A stretch of 64,000 bases of DNA. Origin: a phage. The notes beneath the pieces are model-generated. The model was not told the origin of the DNA. It was given only the letters and a program-made list of their open reading frames with translations, and did no database searches. How positions within the stretch are numbered: position 1 is the first letter of the stretch; every line of letters starts with the position of its first letter. The stretch lies in sequence record PZ151149.1, one strand, 5' to 3'. This document shows, in pieces, positions 2,886 to 56,922 of the stretch. Position numbers and translations under genes: made by a program.

Positions 2886-5800
2886 ATGGCAGATTTAAGC
2901 AGAATCCAATTTAAACGCACTAGCACTAAAGGTCGTAAACCTGATGCTAGTACGATGTATCCGGGGGAATTAGCAATCAACCTTGCGGATCAATACATGT
3001 TTACTAAAAATGATTCGGGGACTCTCATCAATTTAAGTTGTCCTCCGGTGTATAACCGTGACGTTGTAATGGCGGGTAAGGTTAAAGGAAATGATTATAT
3101 TTTAAGCAAAACCGCTAATTATTTTGAAGACCAAACCGCGCGAGATCTTAATTATTTTGGTGCGTTTCGACCGAATAATGCTGATGGTTGGTCTAACTTG
3201 ATTCTGAACATTCCTCACCCCAGCGGTAAAGCACACGGTCGCGGGTTTGAATTTCAATATGGTTCTAGTTCCTCTCAGGTTAAAACCTATGGCTTTGATA
3301 AAGATGGTGCTAAGCGATTCAGCTTTCGCATGTATCATGAAGGTGATAAACCTACCCCATCGGAATTGAACGTTTACAGCAAACAAGAAGTTGATCGCAT
3401 GTTTGTTAAAAACGTTAAAATGTCAACTCCTAGCAGTGCAACAGGGTATTTCAAAATTGCTACCGCTATGATCCCACAGCAAGGAAAAATGGTATTTATT
3501 CGTATCTATGGTGGTAATGGATACAACGTTAACTCTCCGACTCAAGTTGATTTTGTAGAAATCGTGATTCTTGGTGGGAATGGAAATCCTAAAGGTGTTA
3601 CTGTTGCTGCATATCGAAGAAATTCTTTAAATCAACTTGAAGTGTTTGCTATTAATACATCCGGTGACAACTATGATATCTACGTAAAATATGGTCGGTA
3701 TACCGATAATGTTATTGTAGAATTTGGTAAAACGGTTGGTGTTAATTTAACTGTTCATGATGTTCCAGATTTTTCGGAAGCAAAACCTGCTGGTACTACC
3801 TTTGAAGGTCGTATTATTACCATGTTTAATACTGAAAATAAACGAGGTTCTTTGTATTTCGATCAAAACACGCAAGAGACTTATGATATTATCAGTTTGT
3901 GTGACTATTCAGGTACTGGCAAAAAATATATTCGTAAATTCCGCAGTGGACCAAGCTACGCAATCTGGCATGAAACTGTTCAAGACGACACATATCGTCT
4001 ATCAACTGGTACTACCGATTCTAACGAAGTTCTACGAATCACAGGTCGTACCATGTATACCGGAAAACTGGTAGTGGATGCAGGAAGTAATGCTATTCGT
4101 ATGCTGCGACCTACCGGACAAAGTAACTATCTGGAATATGTGGATAATCGCAACGGTGCTAGCAAGCGTCAAGGATGGATCGGTTTTGGTAGTATTGAAA
4201 ATGATAACTTCCAATGGTATAGCGACGTAGGTAAAAACTCATTACAGTTAGATACTACTGGTCAAATATCATTAACCACAGGTGCAACAAAAATTGTATA
4301 CGCTAATGGTCAATATGTATCGGCTAACTCTGATGCGTATCGTATGATCTACGGTAATTATGGTGCATTCTGGCGTAATGATGGTGCTAGCGTTTATCTT
4401 CTGTCTACTGCTGAAAATGACAAATTTGGTGCTTGGAATACCTACCGACCGTTTATCTATAATTTAGTATCTGGAGACGTTAAATTAGGTGGTACTAACA
4501 CCGCATGTTGTTTGTATCTGGGAATTGATGGTAGTACCCGTATCGAGGATAAATTAGTTTTCAGGGCGGGATCTCGTCAATCAATGGACTACTTAGAATT
4601 TGTTCATTGGGGGGCAAGCAATACAGGTCGAAATAACGTTTTAAGTCTTCGTGACTCAAAAGGATTTTTAGCAGAATTTGAGCGTAAAGGTGATAACACC
4701 ATTCAAAATACATTCTTCGGAAGATTTAAAGTCAATGGTGATTCTAACGCTATTACCATTAATGCTCCTACTGATTCTGATGCTGTTTATGTGAAAGGTA
4801 CTTGTAATGATGTAGATAACTGGTATATCGGTAAAGGTGGTGCTGGTAATGGATTAGTTTTTTGTAGTTATAAGACTAATGCGGCTGTTCATCTCACAGA
4901 TAATGGTGAGGTTTTATTAGCCCCACAAAACACCGCAATTGTTAACATCAATCGCGACCGTATACACATCAACGGTACACAGTGGGTGGCAAATCAGCCA
5001 CATGGCTGGGGTAATCAGTGGCTGTCCGAAGCTCCTATATTCGTTGATTTTGGTACTGGTGTTCCATATGATACCTATATGCCAATCATTAAAGCCCGTA
5101 GCCAAACTGCTGGCGGTTATGCAACTAAGGCCGATTTTGGTATATATCGTCGTGGTGCTGGTGATAATTGGGGTTGGGGTGATGCTGTTATTCGTGTCGG
5201 TTCTGCCGAAAGTGCCGATTCTTCACATCCAAATGCTAGATTCATGTTCCAAGCAAATGGAGATTTTAGAGCACCTGCTGGCCTCCGTGCTGGTGTTAAC
5301 TTGGGTGTTGGTACTGATCCTGCATTGGGTGGACATTCTATTGCTATCGGTGATAATGACACTGGCTTAATGTGGGGTGGTGATGGTCGTATTAACCTGC
5401 TTGCTAACGGACAGCATATTGCGTCATGGGGTGTTTTCCATCAAGAACATCCTGGGCTATGGTCTGTCGGTGCTGGGTTCTGGACAGAAGTCGATAAAGC
5501 GATTATTTCTCACGGTCACTTGATTCAGGCGAATGACAGCTATTCTACATATGTTCGTGACATTTATATCCGTTCGGATATTCGCGTGAAGAAAGACCTA
5601 GTTAAATTTGAAAATGCATCTAAGACACTTTCAAAAATTAACGGTTACAAATATCTTCAAAAGCGCGGGACCAATGAAGACGGTAGCGAACGTTGGGAAG
5701 AAAACGCTGGTTTGATTGCTCAGGAAGTTCAAGCTATTTTGCCGGAATTGGTTGAAGGCGATCCAGATAGCGAAAACCTTCTTCGTTTGAACTATAACGG

Positions 5801-5942
5801 TGTTGTTGGTTTAAATACTGCTGCGATCAACGAACACACCGAAGAAATTGCACTTCTTAAAGAAGAAAATAACCGTCTGAAAGAAGAAAATAAAATTCTT
5901 CATGATCGTCTTGCTGCAATTGAAGCAAAATTATTTGGTTAA
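2886..5942 (+). CDS. 37: long tail fibre distal subunit (gp37-like) with C-terminal intramolecular chaperone domain
   Basis: 1018 aa, beta-rich Gly/Asn/Thr fibre composition; shares YHEGDKPTP motif with the upstream gene; last ~122 aa match the S74-type chaperone pattern. Confidence 0.85.
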   Translation: MADLSRIQFKRTSTKGRKPDASTMYPGELAINLADQYMFTKNDSGTLINLSCPPVYNRDVVMAGKVKGNDYILSKTANYFEDQTARDLNYFGAFRPNNADGWSNLILNIPHPSGKAHGRGFEFQYGSSSSQVKTYGFDKDGAKRFSFRMYHEGDKPTPSELNVYSKQEVDRMFVKNVKMSTPSSATGYFKIATAMIPQQGKMVFIRIYGGNGYNVNSPTQVDFVEIVILGGNGNPKGVTVAAYRRNSLNQLEVFAINTSGDNYDIYVKYGRYTDNVIVEFGKTVGVNLTVHDVPDFSEAKPAGTTFEGRIITMFNTENKRGSLYFDQNTQETYDIISLCDYSGTGKKYIRKFRSGPSYAIWHETVQDDTYRLSTGTTDSNEVLRITGRTMYTGKLVVDAGSNAIRMLRPTGQSNYLEYVDNRNGASKRQGWIGFGSIENDNFQWYSDVGKNSLQLDTTGQISLTTGATKIVYANGQYVSANSDAYRMIYGNYGAFWRNDGASVYLLSTAENDKFGAWNTYRPFIYNLVSGDVKLGGTNTACCLYLGIDGSTRIEDKLVFRAGSRQSMDYLEFVHWGASNTGRNNVLSLRDSKGFLAEFERKGDNTIQNTFFGRFKVNGDSNAITINAPTDSDAVYVKGTCNDVDNWYIGKGGAGNGLVFCSYKTNAAVHLTDNGEVLLAPQNTAIVNINRDRIHINGTQWVANQPHGWGNQWLSEAPIFVDFGTGVPYDTYMPIIKARSQTAGGYATKADFGIYRRGAGDNWGWGDAVIRVGSAESADSSHPNARFMFQANGDFRAPAGLRAGVNLGVGTDPALGGHSIAIGDNDTGLMWGGDGRINLLANGQHIASWGVFHQEHPGLWSVGAGFWTEVDKAIISHGHLIQANDSYSTYVRDIYIRSDIRVKKDLVKFENASKTLSKINGYKYLQKRGTNEDGSERWEENAGLIAQEVQAILPELVEGDPDSENLLRLNYNGVVGLNTAAINEHTEEIALLKEENNRLKEENKILHDRLAAIEAKLFG
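5574..5939 (+). other. intramolecular chaperone (S74-like autoproteolytic) domain of the fibre
   Basis: SDIRVKKD...GLIAQEVQAILPELV...heptad C-terminus, the pattern of T5 pb1 / K1F endosialidase chaperone domains; predicted cleavage before Ser at 5574. Confidence 0.65.
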
Positions 5943-5980: not shown

Positions 5981-6277
5981 ATGGGCTATTGGGTAAGTAA
6001 TGAACAAGGCACTAAAATAGATGCTGTAAAATGGCATGTTTTTGATATTCCTAATGGATATGTCCCCGGTCGTGCTGGTGTTGCCGTTTTGCGGCATACT
6101 GCTAATGATGTTTGGGGTGATATTCATATTTCCGTTGACGGTGTGGTCGCCGCGCGTCGTCGTGGTGGTGGGGATTGGGGATTTACGGTTAATGCGTTTG
6201 TTCCTGCTGGATGTACTGTCACCTTTGGTCATGGTGGTGGCGGTGGTATTGAATACTTTAAATTTATGGAGTTTTAA
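5981..6277 (+). CDS. glycine-rich small protein, paralog 1 of 3
   Basis: 98 aa; AAGGA SD; MGYWV start, FDIPNGY and GGGGG motifs shared with the next two ORFs. Confidence 0.6.
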   Translation: MGYWVSNEQGTKIDAVKWHVFDIPNGYVPGRAGVAVLRHTANDVWGDIHISVDGVVAARRRGGGDWGFTVNAFVPAGCTVTFGHGGGGGIEYFKFMEF

Positions 6278-6279
6278 TT

Positions 6280-6585
6280 ATGGCTGGATGGGTTGCGGGA
6301 AGAATGGCTAATGCTATTAGCATTTATGCTAATGGTGGGTGGTTTGGTATCCCTAATGGTTGGGTGGCTGATTCATGCGGTATTGTGTCTGTTCATGCCG
6401 AAGCAGTTGGCGGTGGAGGTGACTTGGACGCCGAATTATATGTAAACGGTACTCTCGAATCAGGTCATCACGCTGGTAATGCCGGAAGTTGGGGAGCTAG
6501 TTCTTTAGTTGGTGTTGGCGCTACTGTCAGTTTTAGCATTGGTAAAGGAAGTTTACATCACTTCCAATTTAGGAGAATGCATTAA
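6280..6585 (+). CDS. glycine-rich small protein, paralog 2 of 3
   Basis: 101 aa; GGAG SD; WFGIPNGW and GGGGD motifs; starts 3 nt after paralog 1 stop. Confidence 0.6.
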   Translation: MAGWVAGRMANAISIYANGGWFGIPNGWVADSCGIVSVHAEAVGGGGDLDAELYVNGTLESGHHAGNAGSWGASSLVGVGATVSFSIGKGSLHHFQFRRMH

Positions 6586-6887
6586 TGGGATATTGGGTGT
6601 ATGGCGTTTTAGACAATAAAGCCGGTAAAGCGAATCAGGGATGGTTTGATATTCCTAACGGGTGGACGCCTGACGCTTTCGGTACGGTTTCATTTGGTGC
6701 TAGTTCTGCTGGTGGTGGCGGTGGTGACTCAGAATTGCTTTTGCATGGCTTTTGTGTGTCTGGAAGTCATAAGGGTCATGATTGGGGACAGATCCATTCT
6801 TGTATTGTGCCGCAGGGAGTAACGATCACGGTAACTACAAACAGGGGTATTTCCCATCTTCGTTATAGACGCTTGAGCAACCGTTAA
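6585..6887 (+). CDS. glycine-rich small protein, paralog 3 of 3
   Basis: 100 aa; AGGAGA SD; WFDIPNGW and GGGGGD motifs; start overlaps paralog 2 stop (TAATG). Confidence 0.6.
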   Translation: MGYWVYGVLDNKAGKANQGWFDIPNGWTPDAFGTVSFGASSAGGGGGDSELLLHGFCVSGSHKGHDWGQIHSCIVPQGVTITVTTNRGISHLRYRRLSNR

Positions 6888-7213: not shown

Positions 7214-7870
7214 ATGCAAGTTTCTGAAAAAGGGAAAGACTTTGCTATCTCAAATGTCCTGCGCGCTATTTTCACAACTAAAAGCACGGAGTTGCTCGTA
7301 CTTCGTGTTTTTGCTGCCGTCGTGTTGTCTATATTAGCATTTGTCGTTTATAGTAAAAACGAGTTATTTGCGCTTTATAAAGAGACTCGTTATGAGACTT
7401 ATGCTCACGTTCTCCAGGTAGAGAAAGACCGCAATTTTGATAATGCAGCACAGGAGCAGTTACAGATAGTTCATGTGTCGGCTGATGCCGATTTTTCTGC
7501 TGTTTTTAGTTTTCGTCCGAAAAACCTAAACTATTTTGTTGATTTGGTGGCATATGAAGGAAAGCTACCGCATACAATCGATGAAAAAAATTTAGGCGGA
7601 TTCCCTATCAATAAAACGAGTGAAGAATATCGTAGGCATCTTTTAGGTAAATCCTATTTTACCGATAAAGATTTCCAGTATATTCCATCAAGAGAAAAGA
7701 AATTAGAGAGTATCGATATAGGGGTTATGTATTCTTGTCCTATATTCAATCTCGACAATGTCTATTCTGGTAGTATCTCCATTGCATGGAAGAATAAACC
7801 GGATATTGACATTGAGAATTTAGATACTCTTTGCAATCAATCTGCCAGAATCCTCGGAAGGATTAGATAA
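7214..7870 (+). CDS. t: holin (T4 gene t family)
   Basis: 218 aa, same length as T4 holin T; conserved blocks LEQLQIVH, SADADFSAV, FRPKNLNYFVD, AYEGKLP, ARILGR. Confidence 0.9.
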   Translation: MQVSEKGKDFAISNVLRAIFTTKSTELLVLRVFAAVVLSILAFVVYSKNELFALYKETRYETYAHVLQVEKDRNFDNAAQEQLQIVHVSADADFSAVFSFRPKNLNYFVDLVAYEGKLPHTIDEKNLGGFPINKTSEEYRRHLLGKSYFTDKDFQYIPSREKKLESIDIGVMYSCPIFNLDNVYSGSISIAWKNKPDIDIENLDTLCNQSARILGRIR

Positions 7871-7874
7871 CTTA

Positions 7875-7909
7875 AAGGGGAAGCCTTTCGGCCTCCCCTT
7901 CTTTTTATT
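7875..7909. terminator. bidirectional terminator between convergent genes
   Basis: AAGGGGAAGCC-tttc-GGCCTCCCCTT hairpin (one mismatch) followed by CTTTTTATT; lies between plus-strand t and minus-strand ORF 7905..8153. Confidence 0.5.
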
Positions 7910-8153
7910 GGCGCATAGAAGCCCCTGAATCGCATTTTGACGCTGTATGATGAAAACATGTAGCGTACCAGTCATCTGCTTGTTTGTCTTCGTCAGAAAA
8001 CGCGTAATTTCGTTGTACGCCGTTTTCTACTTTGACCAGTGCAATAGCTGTTTCTGGAAGATCAATCAATCGAACAAAATCACCATCTTCCCACTCTACA
8101 CGAGCAATATCATAACCCATCTCAAAATATACAATCGCTTGCTCTAATTTCAT
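7905..8153 (-). CDS. hypothetical protein
   Basis: 82 aa ORF, first gene of the minus-strand array. Confidence 0.5.
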   Translation of the reverse strand: MKLEQAIVYFEMGYDIARVEWEDGDFVRLIDLPETAIALVKVENGVQRNYAFSDEDKQADDWYATCFHHTASKCDSGASMRQ

Positions 8154-9192: not shown

Positions 9193-9561
9193 TCACTTAA
9201 CAAAGATTTTCTTTAATGCTTTCAGGATCGTTGCTTCCGGCGCTTCTTCCGGTGGAGGAAGCAATTCTACAACTTCCTCTTCCAACTCGATATAGTCTAC
9301 CAGATATTCTACATAGAATGCAAGTGCTTCCATGAAATTAGATGCTACATCCGATTCGCCACACGCGCCTACATGCATTGTATAAACATCACTGCGATCA
9401 AGTTTGTGAATACTCCCCAGATAGTTCCGGTTATACCAGACTTCCCACACTTTCAGCTTTCCGGTTTTGGTTGATGTTTTATAATCGGTTTCGTAATGAT
9501 GCAATTGACGTTGCAGATCATTGATAATAACACATTTTTCGTAATTGTTTTGAATTTCCAT
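9193..9561 (-). CDS. hypothetical protein
   Basis: 122 aa ORF with acidic proline-rich C-terminal tail. Confidence 0.5.
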   Translation of the reverse strand: MEIQNNYEKCVIINDLQRQLHHYETDYKTSTKTGKLKVWEVWYNRNYLGSIHKLDRSDVYTMHVGACGESDVASNFMEALAFYVEYLVDYIELEEEVVELLPPPEEAPEATILKALKKIFVK

Positions 9562-9786: not shown

Positions 9787-10065
9787 CTATTTTCGGTTAT
9801 ACTTCTGCCACTTTCGGTAATACTGCTTGTAATATTGTTTAATGTTTGGTGGTTCGTCACTATACATGTTATCGACCATCATGTCAATAAGACCTTCCGG
9901 TGTTTGATAATTACCCGCTCTGATAAGTTCTTTAATCAAAAGATCTTGTGGTTCTTTGTATTTGACAATAACAACTGTCGTTTCTGCCTTTCCAATTCCG
10001 ATCCTGTCGTTAGCTCTCATCGCGTCCCACCAGTCTTTTGTAATCTTCATGTTATTGAATTGCAT
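9787..10065 (-). CDS. hypothetical protein
   Basis: 92 aa ORF. Confidence 0.5.
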   Translation of the reverse strand: MQFNNMKITKDWWDAMRANDRIGIGKAETTVVIVKYKEPQDLLIKELIRAGNYQTPEGLIDMMVDNMYSDEPPNIKQYYKQYYRKWQKYNRK

Positions 10066-10068
10066 AAT

Positions 10069-10869
10069 TTAACCCTTCTTATATTCGCAAACATATTGAG
10101 TACCATAATCATAGCTAATGCGGCCTTTCTCGATGACCTCAAAGCGGATTTCATCGTTTTCCCCTACCCACATTTTGTACTCGTTGAAGTATCCTGCTAC
10201 ATCCGGTTTGCTCATACCAACAACCATATTTTTATATTGTTTGCTGCGTGTCAGATTTGATTTAAACACTTCGCGCTCATCAACATATACGAAAGAAGAC
10301 AATTCACCTTCGGTCATGGTCATTTTCAGCTTGCCGCCCTTGTTACCATAAGTAGAGTTGCCATACAATGGATCTTTGCGGCTGTCTGTTTCAATACCAT
10401 CAATGATTTTCCATGTAAATTTTGCAATGCACTGATAAGTGATAGATCCAGAGATTTTCTCTTCTTTCTTCTGTTCTTCCACCACTTTTTCTTCCTGTTT
10501 CGGTTGTTCTTCTTCAACCTTCGCAGAAGTCTCTGAATCGCTTTCTGACTCGGTTTCTTCTTTAGGTAATACATTCATCAAGTTTTGGATTTGAGCGTTG
10601 TATACAGCCTCCAGTGGCTGAATCTGCCCGATATTGATCATTGTATCACGAACAGTTTTATTCCAGTTGCGTTGCTCTTGTTTCAGAGACGGATCAATCT
10701 TAACAGCTTGAACATATACTTCATGAAGTTTAGAATCCAGTGCGGAGATAGACTCATTAGCACAAATAAACTTCTCTGATTTGGTAGTGGCTTTAGCGCA
10801 ATCAAAGGACGCAGCGTTAGCACCGAAAGCAGTAGCAGAAAGAACGATAGCAGCGATAATGTTTTTCAT
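10069..10869 (-). CDS. secreted protein with DUF1311 / LprI-like N-terminal domain
   Basis: 266 aa; signal peptide MKNIIAAIVLSATAFGANA; FDCAKA...EKFICAN...LDSKL...VY...QRNW pattern typical of DUF1311; acidic E/K linker; separate C-terminal domain. Confidence 0.7.
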   Translation of the reverse strand: MKNIIAAIVLSATAFGANAASFDCAKATTKSEKFICANESISALDSKLHEVYVQAVKIDPSLKQEQRNWNKTVRDTMINIGQIQPLEAVYNAQIQNLMNVLPKEETESESDSETSAKVEEEQPKQEEKVVEEQKKEEKISGSITYQCIAKFTWKIIDGIETDSRKDPLYGNSTYGNKGGKLKMTMTEGELSSFVYVDEREVFKSNLTRSKQYKNMVVGMSKPDVAGYFNEYKMWVGENDEIRFEVIEKGRISYDYGTQYVCEYKKG

Positions 10870-10894
10870 AATATATTCCTCAATGTTTTTCTTG

Positions 10895-10933
10895 ATGGGA
10901 GTATCTTACTACTCCCTTAATCCGGTGTCAACT
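10895..10933 (-). promoter_or_regulatory. early promoter with stem-loop (PeSL-like cassette)
   Basis: Minus strand TTGACA, 17-nt spacer, TAAGAT; inverted repeat GGGAGTA/TACTCCC flanks the -10; ~20 nt upstream of the ATG at 10869. Confidence 0.6.
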
Positions 10934-10938
10934 ACTTT

Positions 10939-11151
10939 TTAATTTTTACCCGCTCGTGCATTAATACGCATTTTCTGCATAGCCATGATCTGGTTTACTG
11001 CTTCTTCTTTACGTTCTTGCGTGATAACGTGACCAGATTCCGCAAACTCTCCAGAGACCTCTTCCACGATCTCGCGAACTTGAGAACGTCCAAAGATGCG
11101 GTTTCCTTCGTAGCTCATAAACTCTGTTACTACTTGCTCGATAGATTTCAT
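10939..11151 (-). CDS. hypothetical protein
   Basis: 70 aa ORF behind a PeSL-like cassette and AGGAGAATCA SD. Confidence 0.5.
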   Translation of the reverse strand: MKSIEQVVTEFMSYEGNRIFGRSQVREIVEEVSGEFAESGHVITQERKEEAVNQIMAMQKMRINARAGKN

Positions 11152-11172: not shown

Positions 11173-11211
11173 ATGGGAGTATCTTACTACTCCCGTTTCT
11201 TTACGTCAACT
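11173..11211 (-). promoter_or_regulatory. early promoter with stem-loop (PeSL-like cassette)
   Basis: GTTGAC -35, GGGAGTA...TACTCCC hairpin around the -10, then AGGAGAATCAC SD and ATG. Confidence 0.6.
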
Positions 11212-55975: not shown

Positions 55976-56012
55976 TGGGAGTATCTTACTACTCCCGTTT
56001 CATCATGTCAAG
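55976..56012 (-). promoter_or_regulatory. early promoter with stem-loop (PeSL-like)
   Basis: TTGACA, GGGAGTA-gtaaga-TACTCCC, then GAGAGGATTAT SD. Confidence 0.6.
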
Positions 56013-56884: not shown

Positions 56885-56922
56885 ATGGGAGTATTTTACT
56901 ACTCCCATTTCATGCTGTCAAC
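56885..56922 (-). promoter_or_regulatory. early promoter with stem-loop (PeSL-like)
   Basis: TTGACA, GGGAGTA...TACTCCC hairpin, then SD. Confidence 0.6.

Follow-up and report, generated by a model that had tools for sequence, protein, structure and literature searches.

A DUF1311 gene of Krischvirus phages joining a constant, probably exported module to swapped alleles of an orphan beta-barrel: a candidate exclusion or immunity protein

What is the use to a phage of an early gene for a probably periplasmic protein, one half of which hardly changes and the other half of which is exchanged as a block? The question is raised by an open reading frame (ORF) at 10069..10869 on the minus strand of a 64,000-nucleotide (nt) stretch of phage DNA (record PZ151149.1; the whole of it is called the window here), whose source is a Krischvirus, a T4-type myovirus of Escherichia coli in the RB49/Phi1/GEC-3S group. 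Starting with ATG and encoding 266 amino acids (aa), exactly as delimited in a first-pass annotation made from the letters alone, the ORF lies in a leftward early block with holin gene t on one side and topoisomerase gene 52 on the other, and the 2 kb surrounding it are 96-97% identical to phages PHB13, MIZ2/3/6, and GEC-3S. There is one copy in the window and one in RB49; records of the gene among krischviruses are about as numerous as those of the gp5 gene (roughly 60 each), and it is kept in essentially every sequenced Krischvirus (~60). The DUF1311 annotation of its product is already public and not new. Nolan et al. tabulated RB49ORF260c in 2006 with a DUF1311 match of E = 0.2 (PMC1524935), and the literature yielded nothing on the gene apart from that table; the RB49 protein is named “LprI-like N-terminal domain-containing” in UniProt, and the E. 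coli copies are named “lysozyme inhibitor LprI family protein” in RefSeq. Found described nowhere are the orphan barrel in its C-terminal half, the organisation into a constant module and a variable cassette with ancient alleles, and the presence of one gene both in a genus of virulent myoviruses and in a temperate prophage. We know of no case in which the activity in the DUF1311 family name was shown for the domain itself.

The most distinctive feature of the gene, missed in the first-pass annotation, is the joining of a constant module to a hypervariable barrel, which makes it one of the most polymorphic loci in Krischvirus genomes that are otherwise 95-99% identical. In a collection of 5.8 billion proteins, the protein is present in twenty clusters formed at 90% identity, in all of which residues 1-106 are nearly invariant, and the identity of the barrel ranges from 99% down to ~14-25%. 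At the DNA level, the window, RB49, FL04, and JSE agree at 92-100% over the signal peptide, the DUF1311 domain, and the linker; identity then drops at ~10480 (codon ~130) to 20-55% and stays low up to the stop codon, recovering fully only by ~9780 because the next ORF is variable as well. The 5' recombination breakpoints fall within the linker at about codons 124-138, and megablast matches to copies of the gene in E. coli stop at nt 371, 381, 402, or 414. At least seven allele classes of the barrel can be distinguished in the segment running from codon ~125-138 to the stop codon, and six classes (A, B1, C, D, E1, and E3) fill one and the same syntenic position in Krischvirus genomes and contigs, the window phage carrying class A.

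The two halves also differ in their evolutionary rates, estimated by the method of Nei and Gojobori as synonymous (dS) and nonsynonymous (dN) divergence. The N-terminal part has a dS of ~0.13 and a dN of ~0.004, with dN/dS at 0-0.1 and still at 0.06 against a lineage as far removed as dS 1.2; purifying selection on this module is strong. Synonymous sites are saturated when barrel classes are compared with one another (dS ~1 to above 2), and within classes dN/dS is 0.1-0.3, with a single close pair (P0003/P0004) at ~0.95 on very few changes. Saturation between classes and a low ratio within them indicate old, constrained alleles and not rapid adaptive change, and positive selection as the origin of the barrel diversity was rejected on these grounds. 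The diversity is thus one of ancient, functionally constrained alleles shuffled onto a homogeneous constant module. Between the window and GEC-3S the class A barrel has a dS of 0.04 and the N-terminal part attached to it a dS of 0.13; the barrel is younger than its own constant module, which indicates a recent cassette transfer.

The same cassette pattern extends into the chromosome of E. coli, where a temperate prophage shares ~95% DNA identity with the phage gene. Of 5426 complete E. coli genomes, 26 carry the gene on the chromosome; there the first 371-414 nt match the phage gene at 93-97% identity and then give way to other barrel alleles (B2, D', and E2), and in three E. coli strains the barrel flanks are 93-100% identical around a barrel of 20-58% identity. 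The ATG is exactly where homology of the phage and E. coli copies sets in, the promoter of the phage gene not being common to both. The E. coli copy is the terminal gene of a prophage of ~35 kb and is opposite in orientation to its structural genes. The element encodes a serine recombinase, tail, capsid, and portal proteins, and a lambda-type gpA terminase, and its insertion splits hicB, with the LprI-family gene at one end and the large serine recombinase at the other. In E. coli H2 it occupies about 2,523,700-2,558,850 of NZ_CP028733.1 inside hicB, two fragments of which are left, and hicA is intact next to the truncated hicB. The product of RB49 ORF102c, which carries no annotation beyond that of putative endolysin, was reported to match a D-alanyl-D-alanine carboxypeptidase domain (E = 0.0014) and not a lysozyme (Nolan et al. 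2006, PMC1524935); no BLASTP similarity was found between the endolysins of RB49 and of the hicB prophage, and a shared endolysin type as a link between the two was dropped. Other phages encode a signal peptide, a DUF1311 domain, and a linker followed by a different C-terminal domain with a cysteine pair, as in Klebsiella phage Marfa (between genes 61 and 56), in Aeromonas T4-type phages, and in the lambda-like phage ev099 (between exo and xis/int).

A constant N-terminus with a variable C-terminus is similar in layout to the polymorphic toxins, in which a constant delivery domain carries a variable toxic C-terminus, and the ORF that follows in the window would then supply the immunity. This 92-aa ORF (9787..10065, minus strand) gave no family match in a Pfam scan, is itself variable, and begins 3 nt past the stop codon of the DUF1311 gene, so that the two may be translationally coupled. 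It occurs in two allelic types, “...RANDRIGIGKAE...KQYYRKWQKYNRK” and “...RDTPETKLNETTT...PWYEGYFKTYRDHNRK”, and its conserved 5' end is the 3' homology arm for the barrel cassette. A toxin is scarcely credible nevertheless, for the types of the 92-aa ORF are unlinked to barrel class (classes A and E1 were each found with both), the E. coli copies are entirely without a downstream partner gene, and a within-class dN/dS of 0.1-0.3 together with a common barrel plan is unlike a set of unrelated toxin domains. The toxin-immunity pairing was rejected as largely refuted by the independent assortment, which implies in addition that the barrel cassette recombines at both of its edges, within the linker and at the conserved beginning of the 92-aa ORF.

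The exchanged part begins beyond an acidic linker rich in E, K, Q, and P (codons 102-139, 10453..10566, minus strand), which holds 15 D/E against 7 K/R, is predicted to be disordered, and has a predicted local distance difference test score (pLDDT) below 50 in the AlphaFold2 (AF2) model. The first-pass annotation had spoken of an acidic E/K linker and of a separate C-terminal domain behind it, and the model bears out both descriptions: residues ~140-266 (codons 140-266, 10072..10452, minus strand) are modelled at pLDDT ~85 as eight antiparallel strands of a lipocalin-like beta-barrel. Two cysteines are invariant in the barrel, Cys147 in the first strand and Cys261 in the last. A second AF2 model, for the JSE allele of class E1, has ~8 strands at pLDDT 60-84 with cysteines again in the first and last strands, and classes A-D and E likely share the barrel plan. 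A Pfam scan of 11 barrel alleles gave no family match, and MliC (PF09864), sought in the same alleles, gave none at E up to 10. Fold comparison of the barrel placed ligand-binding calycins and a putative lipid-binding protein at the top, and PhiA, of the MliC family, came only 50th among generic eight-strand barrels; membership of the barrel in MliC was rejected in view of these two results. An HMMER profile search of 1.84 billion representative proteins returned, apart from the family, a single fragment and three repetitive proteins that were matched through spurious summed scores. By these searches the barrel is to be regarded as an orphan family without the MliC signature. Its modelled shape would place it in the small eight-stranded calycin-type fold class of the lipocalins and anticalins and of the NHBA, TbpB, and fHbp barrels of Neisseria, which are variable binding modules of surface proteins.

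The fold matches invite the explanation that the ligand of the barrel is a small hydrophobic or lipid-linked molecule which differs between E. coli strains, such as undecaprenyl-linked intermediates of O-antigen, capsule, or lipopolysaccharide core, and that its binding remodels the cell surface or masks a receptor in the manner of seroconversion. Discrete ancient alleles do resemble surface-polysaccharide polymorphism, and the prophage gene adjoins the attachment site, beside which temperate phages often carry their O-antigen modification genes. The known seroconversion proteins, however, are membrane enzymes and not soluble barrels. O antigens are reported to be receptors for RB49-like phages (PMC9569957), but barrel class is independent of the layout of the tail-fibre locus when the window phage and GEC-3S are compared. 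On balance, ligand binding of this kind is regarded as distinctly unlikely.

When and where the protein would act can be read from the 5' end of the gene. Its promoter, TTGACA-17-TAAGAT at 10931..10903 on the minus strand (-35 at 10931..10926, -10 at 10908..10903), is embedded in a promoter-early stem-loop (PeSL) cassette at 10897..10931, with the -10 hexamer inside the loop of the inverted repeat GGGAGTAGTAAGATACTCCC, and a Shine-Dalgarno sequence, GAGGAA, can be read at 10876..10881, 6 nt 5' of the ATG. Four copies of the 35-nt motif TTGACA-N9-GGGAGTAGTAAGATACTCCC, none with more than one mismatch, lie in the window (10897-10931, 11175-11209, 55977-56011, and 56887-56921, all on the minus strand) against 0 occurrences in 100 shuffles, and the GEC-3S record annotates a promoter at a site matching the PeSL of the window. 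Arbiol et al. described PeSLs in RB49 and phi1 as a strong sigma-70-like promoter combined with a terminator and repeated in hyperplastic regions (PMC2839356); the promoter and terminator assays of that study were done on PeSLs other than the one here. The features that define the element, a sigma-70 promoter with its -10 in a conserved stem-loop, are both present at 10897..10931. What the first-pass annotation called a PeSL-like promoter is thus an exact instance of the motif, and its proposal of early expression accords with a sigma-70 promoter ahead of a gene in the leftward early block. RB49, FL04, and JSE carry an extra ORF of 51 aa (RB49ORF261c) just 5' of the DUF1311 gene, the counterpart of which is absent from GEC-3S and from the window phage, where it would lie at ~10941 between the ORF at 10939..11151 and the DUF1311 gene; the presence or absence of this ORF directly 5' of a PeSL promoter is the type of indel described by Arbiol et al. 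(PMC2839356).

Codons 1-19 (10813..10869, minus strand) encode MKNIIAAIVLSATAFGANA, which a rule-based check identifies as a Sec-type signal peptide, with a lysine at position 2, a hydrophobic core reaching a Kyte-Doolittle maximum of 2.54 over 10 aa, and alanines at -3 and -1; signal peptidase I is predicted to cut after Ala19, between FGANA and ASFDC. No lipobox was found at this cleavage region, the +1 residue not being a cysteine and the first cysteine being residue 24. The small-X-A junction in front of ASFDC (A or V at -3, A at -1) persists in the homologues from Klebsiella phage Marfa, Aeromonas phage AS-sw, and the lambda-like ev099, whose overall identity is as low as 25-30%, so that the Sec signal peptide claimed at first pass is upheld both by its n-h-c layout with small residues at -3 and -1 and by the conservation of the junction in distant homologues. 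Codons 20-101 (10567..10812, minus strand) then form the DUF1311/LprI-N domain, which is predicted to be helical. The profile PF07007 LprI (DUF1311) is matched at E = 1.7e-5 with 25.6 bits, above the gathering cut-off of 22, in agreement with the DUF1311-type domain proposed from the letters; the match is partial, covering residues 24-76 against profile positions 1-71 of 106. All five of five diverse phage homologues match the same profile, the best at E = 7.4e-7, and the Cys24/Cys36 pair and the QRxW motif are invariant among family sequences. An AF2 model gives the domain four helices at medium confidence (pLDDT ~60). An NCBIfam scan returned nothing useful for the protein, and a sequence search of the PDB with the whole protein returned chance-level matches only. 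We infer export, cleavage, and disulfides from the sequence rules and from the precedent of ScwA, a soluble periplasmic DUF1311 protein of Salmonella.

The family name led the first-pass annotation to think of the LprI lysozyme inhibitors, and the corresponding explanation would have the protein replace T4 Spackle and block, in the periplasm, either the gp5 of superinfecting T4-type phages or a lysozyme of the host or the environment. The PF07007 match is in keeping with it, as is the order of the domains, for Mycobacterium tuberculosis LprI (Rv1541c, PF07007 + PF09864) is likewise exported and likewise sets an N-terminal DUF1311 domain before an eight-stranded barrel (PMC7933661). LprI, however, is a lipoprotein with an MliC barrel, unlike the phage protein, which has neither lipobox nor MliC match and which instead possesses a long acidic linker and a polymorphic orphan barrel; and it is the MliC domain that is the inhibitory part of LprI (PMC7933661). 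The absence of MliC from the 11 alleles, with PhiA at rank 50, and the invariance of gp5, which stays at 98.8% identity or more in ~60 krischviruses with any barrel class and however variable the barrel, leave membership in the LprI-type inhibitors unsupported, the family name being a weak basis for it; co-evolution of the barrel with the phage's own gp5 lysozyme was rejected for the same invariance. ScwA, which has a DUF1311 domain without MliC, is the only DUF1311-only periplasmic protein tested for lysozyme resistance, and its deletion mutant showed unchanged lysozyme sensitivity (PMC7933661).

The comparison with Spackle is closer in setting than in kind. Spackle (gp61.3) is, as the DUF1311 protein is predicted to be, an early, Sec-exported, disulfide-containing periplasmic phage protein, and it inhibits the gp5 lysozyme and excludes superinfection (PMC7677548). 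Krischviruses possess a gp5 tail lysozyme and no annotated imm. With authentic T4 Sp (100% identical to PDB 6x6o) and Marfa Sp as tblastn queries, no Spackle was found in the window or in RB49, the best match (E = 0.067) lying inside gene 41; none was found in Krischvirus by tblastn or annotation, an absence limited by the sensitivity of tblastn. Spackle differs from the DUF1311 protein, nonetheless, in being a single small domain of 97 aa to which the phage protein shows no sequence similarity, and gp5, its target, has no variation here that goes with that of the barrel. Membership in the Spackle family was rejected, as tblastn finds in the genome of the DUF1311 protein no homologue of gp61.3. 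Moreover, Marfa encodes an Sp as well as a DUF1311 protein, and the prophage bearing the gene is a siphovirus-like element and not a T4-type phage. In sum, a lysozyme inhibitor is unlikely; by its profile matches, the protein belongs to the DUF1311 family but appears to stand outside both the LprI/MliC inhibitor class and the Spackle family.

ScwA itself suggests a further explanation, in which the DUF1311 domain would modulate host peptidoglycan hydrolases so as to stabilise the envelope during infection or lysogeny, or to tune lysis. In ScwA, which is soluble and periplasmic, DsbA forms two disulfides, and the protein controls the levels of MltD and of other hydrolases (PMC7933661); the extreme conservation of the DUF1311 module in the phages (dN/dS 0-0.1 even at dS 1.2) would fit a conserved host partner. 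ScwA differs, though, in architecture: it is all-helical, has 275 aa with DUF1311 at the C-terminus, and possesses no barrel and no reported polymorphism. The account leaves the anciently polymorphic second domain unexplained, and the occurrence of the gene in two unrelated phage types whose endolysins have no detectable similarity disfavours a phage-specific role in lysis. Modulation of hydrolases is therefore considered improbable.

Our preferred answer, which is held tentatively, is that the gene encodes a protein for exclusion or immunity in the periplasm, one domain of which is polymorphic and confers specificity and whose target is heterologous. The gene would be transcribed directly after infection from its sigma-70 PeSL promoter, and the product, a soluble protein of two domains, would reach the periplasm by Sec and be cleaved behind Ala19, with one putative disulfide (Cys24-Cys36) in the DUF1311 helical domain and another (Cys147-Cys261) clamping the first and last strands of the barrel, the two domains being kept apart by the flexible acidic linker of ~38 residues. 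The constant DUF1311 module would touch some invariant partner, and the barrel would serve as the specificity module, its ancient alleles being swapped as cassettes through homologous recombination that reaches from the linker to the beginning of the 92-aa ORF. Most likely the protein would shield infected or lysogenic cells from an outside agent acting in the periplasm, be it by exclusion of rival phages at the stage of envelope penetration or by immunity to a toxin targeting the cell wall, and the set of rivals covered would differ from one barrel allele to the next. A more far-reaching version is doubtful: that of a hitherto unrecognised, modular family of periplasmic exclusion or immunity proteins in which a conserved DUF1311 “constant region” is combined with an anticalin-like “variable region”, with alleles under balancing selection and cassettes traded between virulent T4-type phages and E. 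coli prophages, each neutralising a different rival phage or cell-wall toxin.

Several considerations favour a protective role of this kind. Early lytic positions and prophage-end moron positions are classic for exclusion and conversion genes (T4 imm and sp; the morons of lambda and P22), and the location of the gene, in the early region of a virulent phage and beside the attachment site of a prophage, matches them and counts for such a role, with which the gene context fits. The predicted export of the protein speaks for it as well, as does the gp5 tail lysozyme of krischviruses in genomes with neither a detectable Spackle nor an annotated imm. Discrete allele classes of great age commonly mark specificity determinants under balancing selection. 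The DUF1311 immunity proteins of type VI secretion systems (T6SS), among them Etsi4 of enterohaemorrhagic E. coli and predicted orphan immunity genes of Pantoea and beside WHIX effectors, are taken to be short, single-domain, and encoded beside their effector, unlike the phage protein with its second, polymorphic domain, its lack of an effector neighbour, and its place in phage and prophage. They share with it a signal peptide and a DUF1311 domain and neutralise, as reported or predicted, an incoming periplasm-acting enzyme; DUF1311 proteins act or are predicted to act as periplasmic immunity to cell-wall-targeting T6SS effectors (PMC12981562, PMC12135965, PMC9796082).

Against the exclusion or immunity protein stand the following points. 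A search of PADLOC-DB gave no match for the phage protein, and for the E. coli allele only a chance-level 14 bits. Marfa, as already mentioned, carries both Spackle and a DUF1311 two-domain protein, and the two are therefore not simple alternatives. The balancing polymorphism could equally reflect a polymorphic host component. Lastly, profile comparison gives no statistical link between barrel classes A-D and class E, for hhalign returned a probability of 2.8% that spans the first 23 residues only; homology of the two sets, which share position, cysteine placement, and a medium-confidence model without statistical support, is unproven, and it is that medium-confidence model only which suggests one architecture for both.

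What is at stake follows from the setting. Few periplasmic phage proteins are known, and those that are understood, T4 Spackle and T5 Llp, each revealed a mechanism of superinfection exclusion. Krischviruses are widely used in phage therapy cocktails, and if barrel alleles do set which rivals are excluded, interference would be predicted within such cocktails and between phages and lysogens. An exclusion protein of this type would also offer a tractable experimental handle on DUF1311, a very large domain family; without an exclusion phenotype, the gene would be an ordinary accessory gene with a public domain annotation.

Some neighbouring genes deserve mention. The leftward early unit that holds the DUF1311 gene ends with an ORF of 82 aa (7905..8153, minus strand) that scores 28.4 bits, above the cut-off of 25, with Pfam PF11195 “Tad2-like” (Thoeris anti-defence 2); its counterpart lies directly before the holin in other Krischvirus contigs. 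The ORF at 9193..9561 (minus strand) had zero matches in a Pfam scan up to E 0.01; genes of the same length (122 aa) at the matching position in related contigs are annotated PF26821 Phage_T4_Y16F, and the RB49 annotation gives its counterpart a similarity to a T4 ORF of the asiA-motA region. The same annotation lists neither asiA nor motA between t and gene 52, and neither sp nor imm. In the interval from the distal tail-fibre gene gp37 (2886..5942, 1018 aa) to the holin gene t (7214..7870), finally, the window phage has three paralogous ORFs in tandem, each ~100 aa long and with runs of glycine (5981..6277, 6280..6585, and 6585..6887, plus strand) where GEC-3S and RB49 show another gene layout, and these may be tail-fibre accessory or adhesin-related genes.

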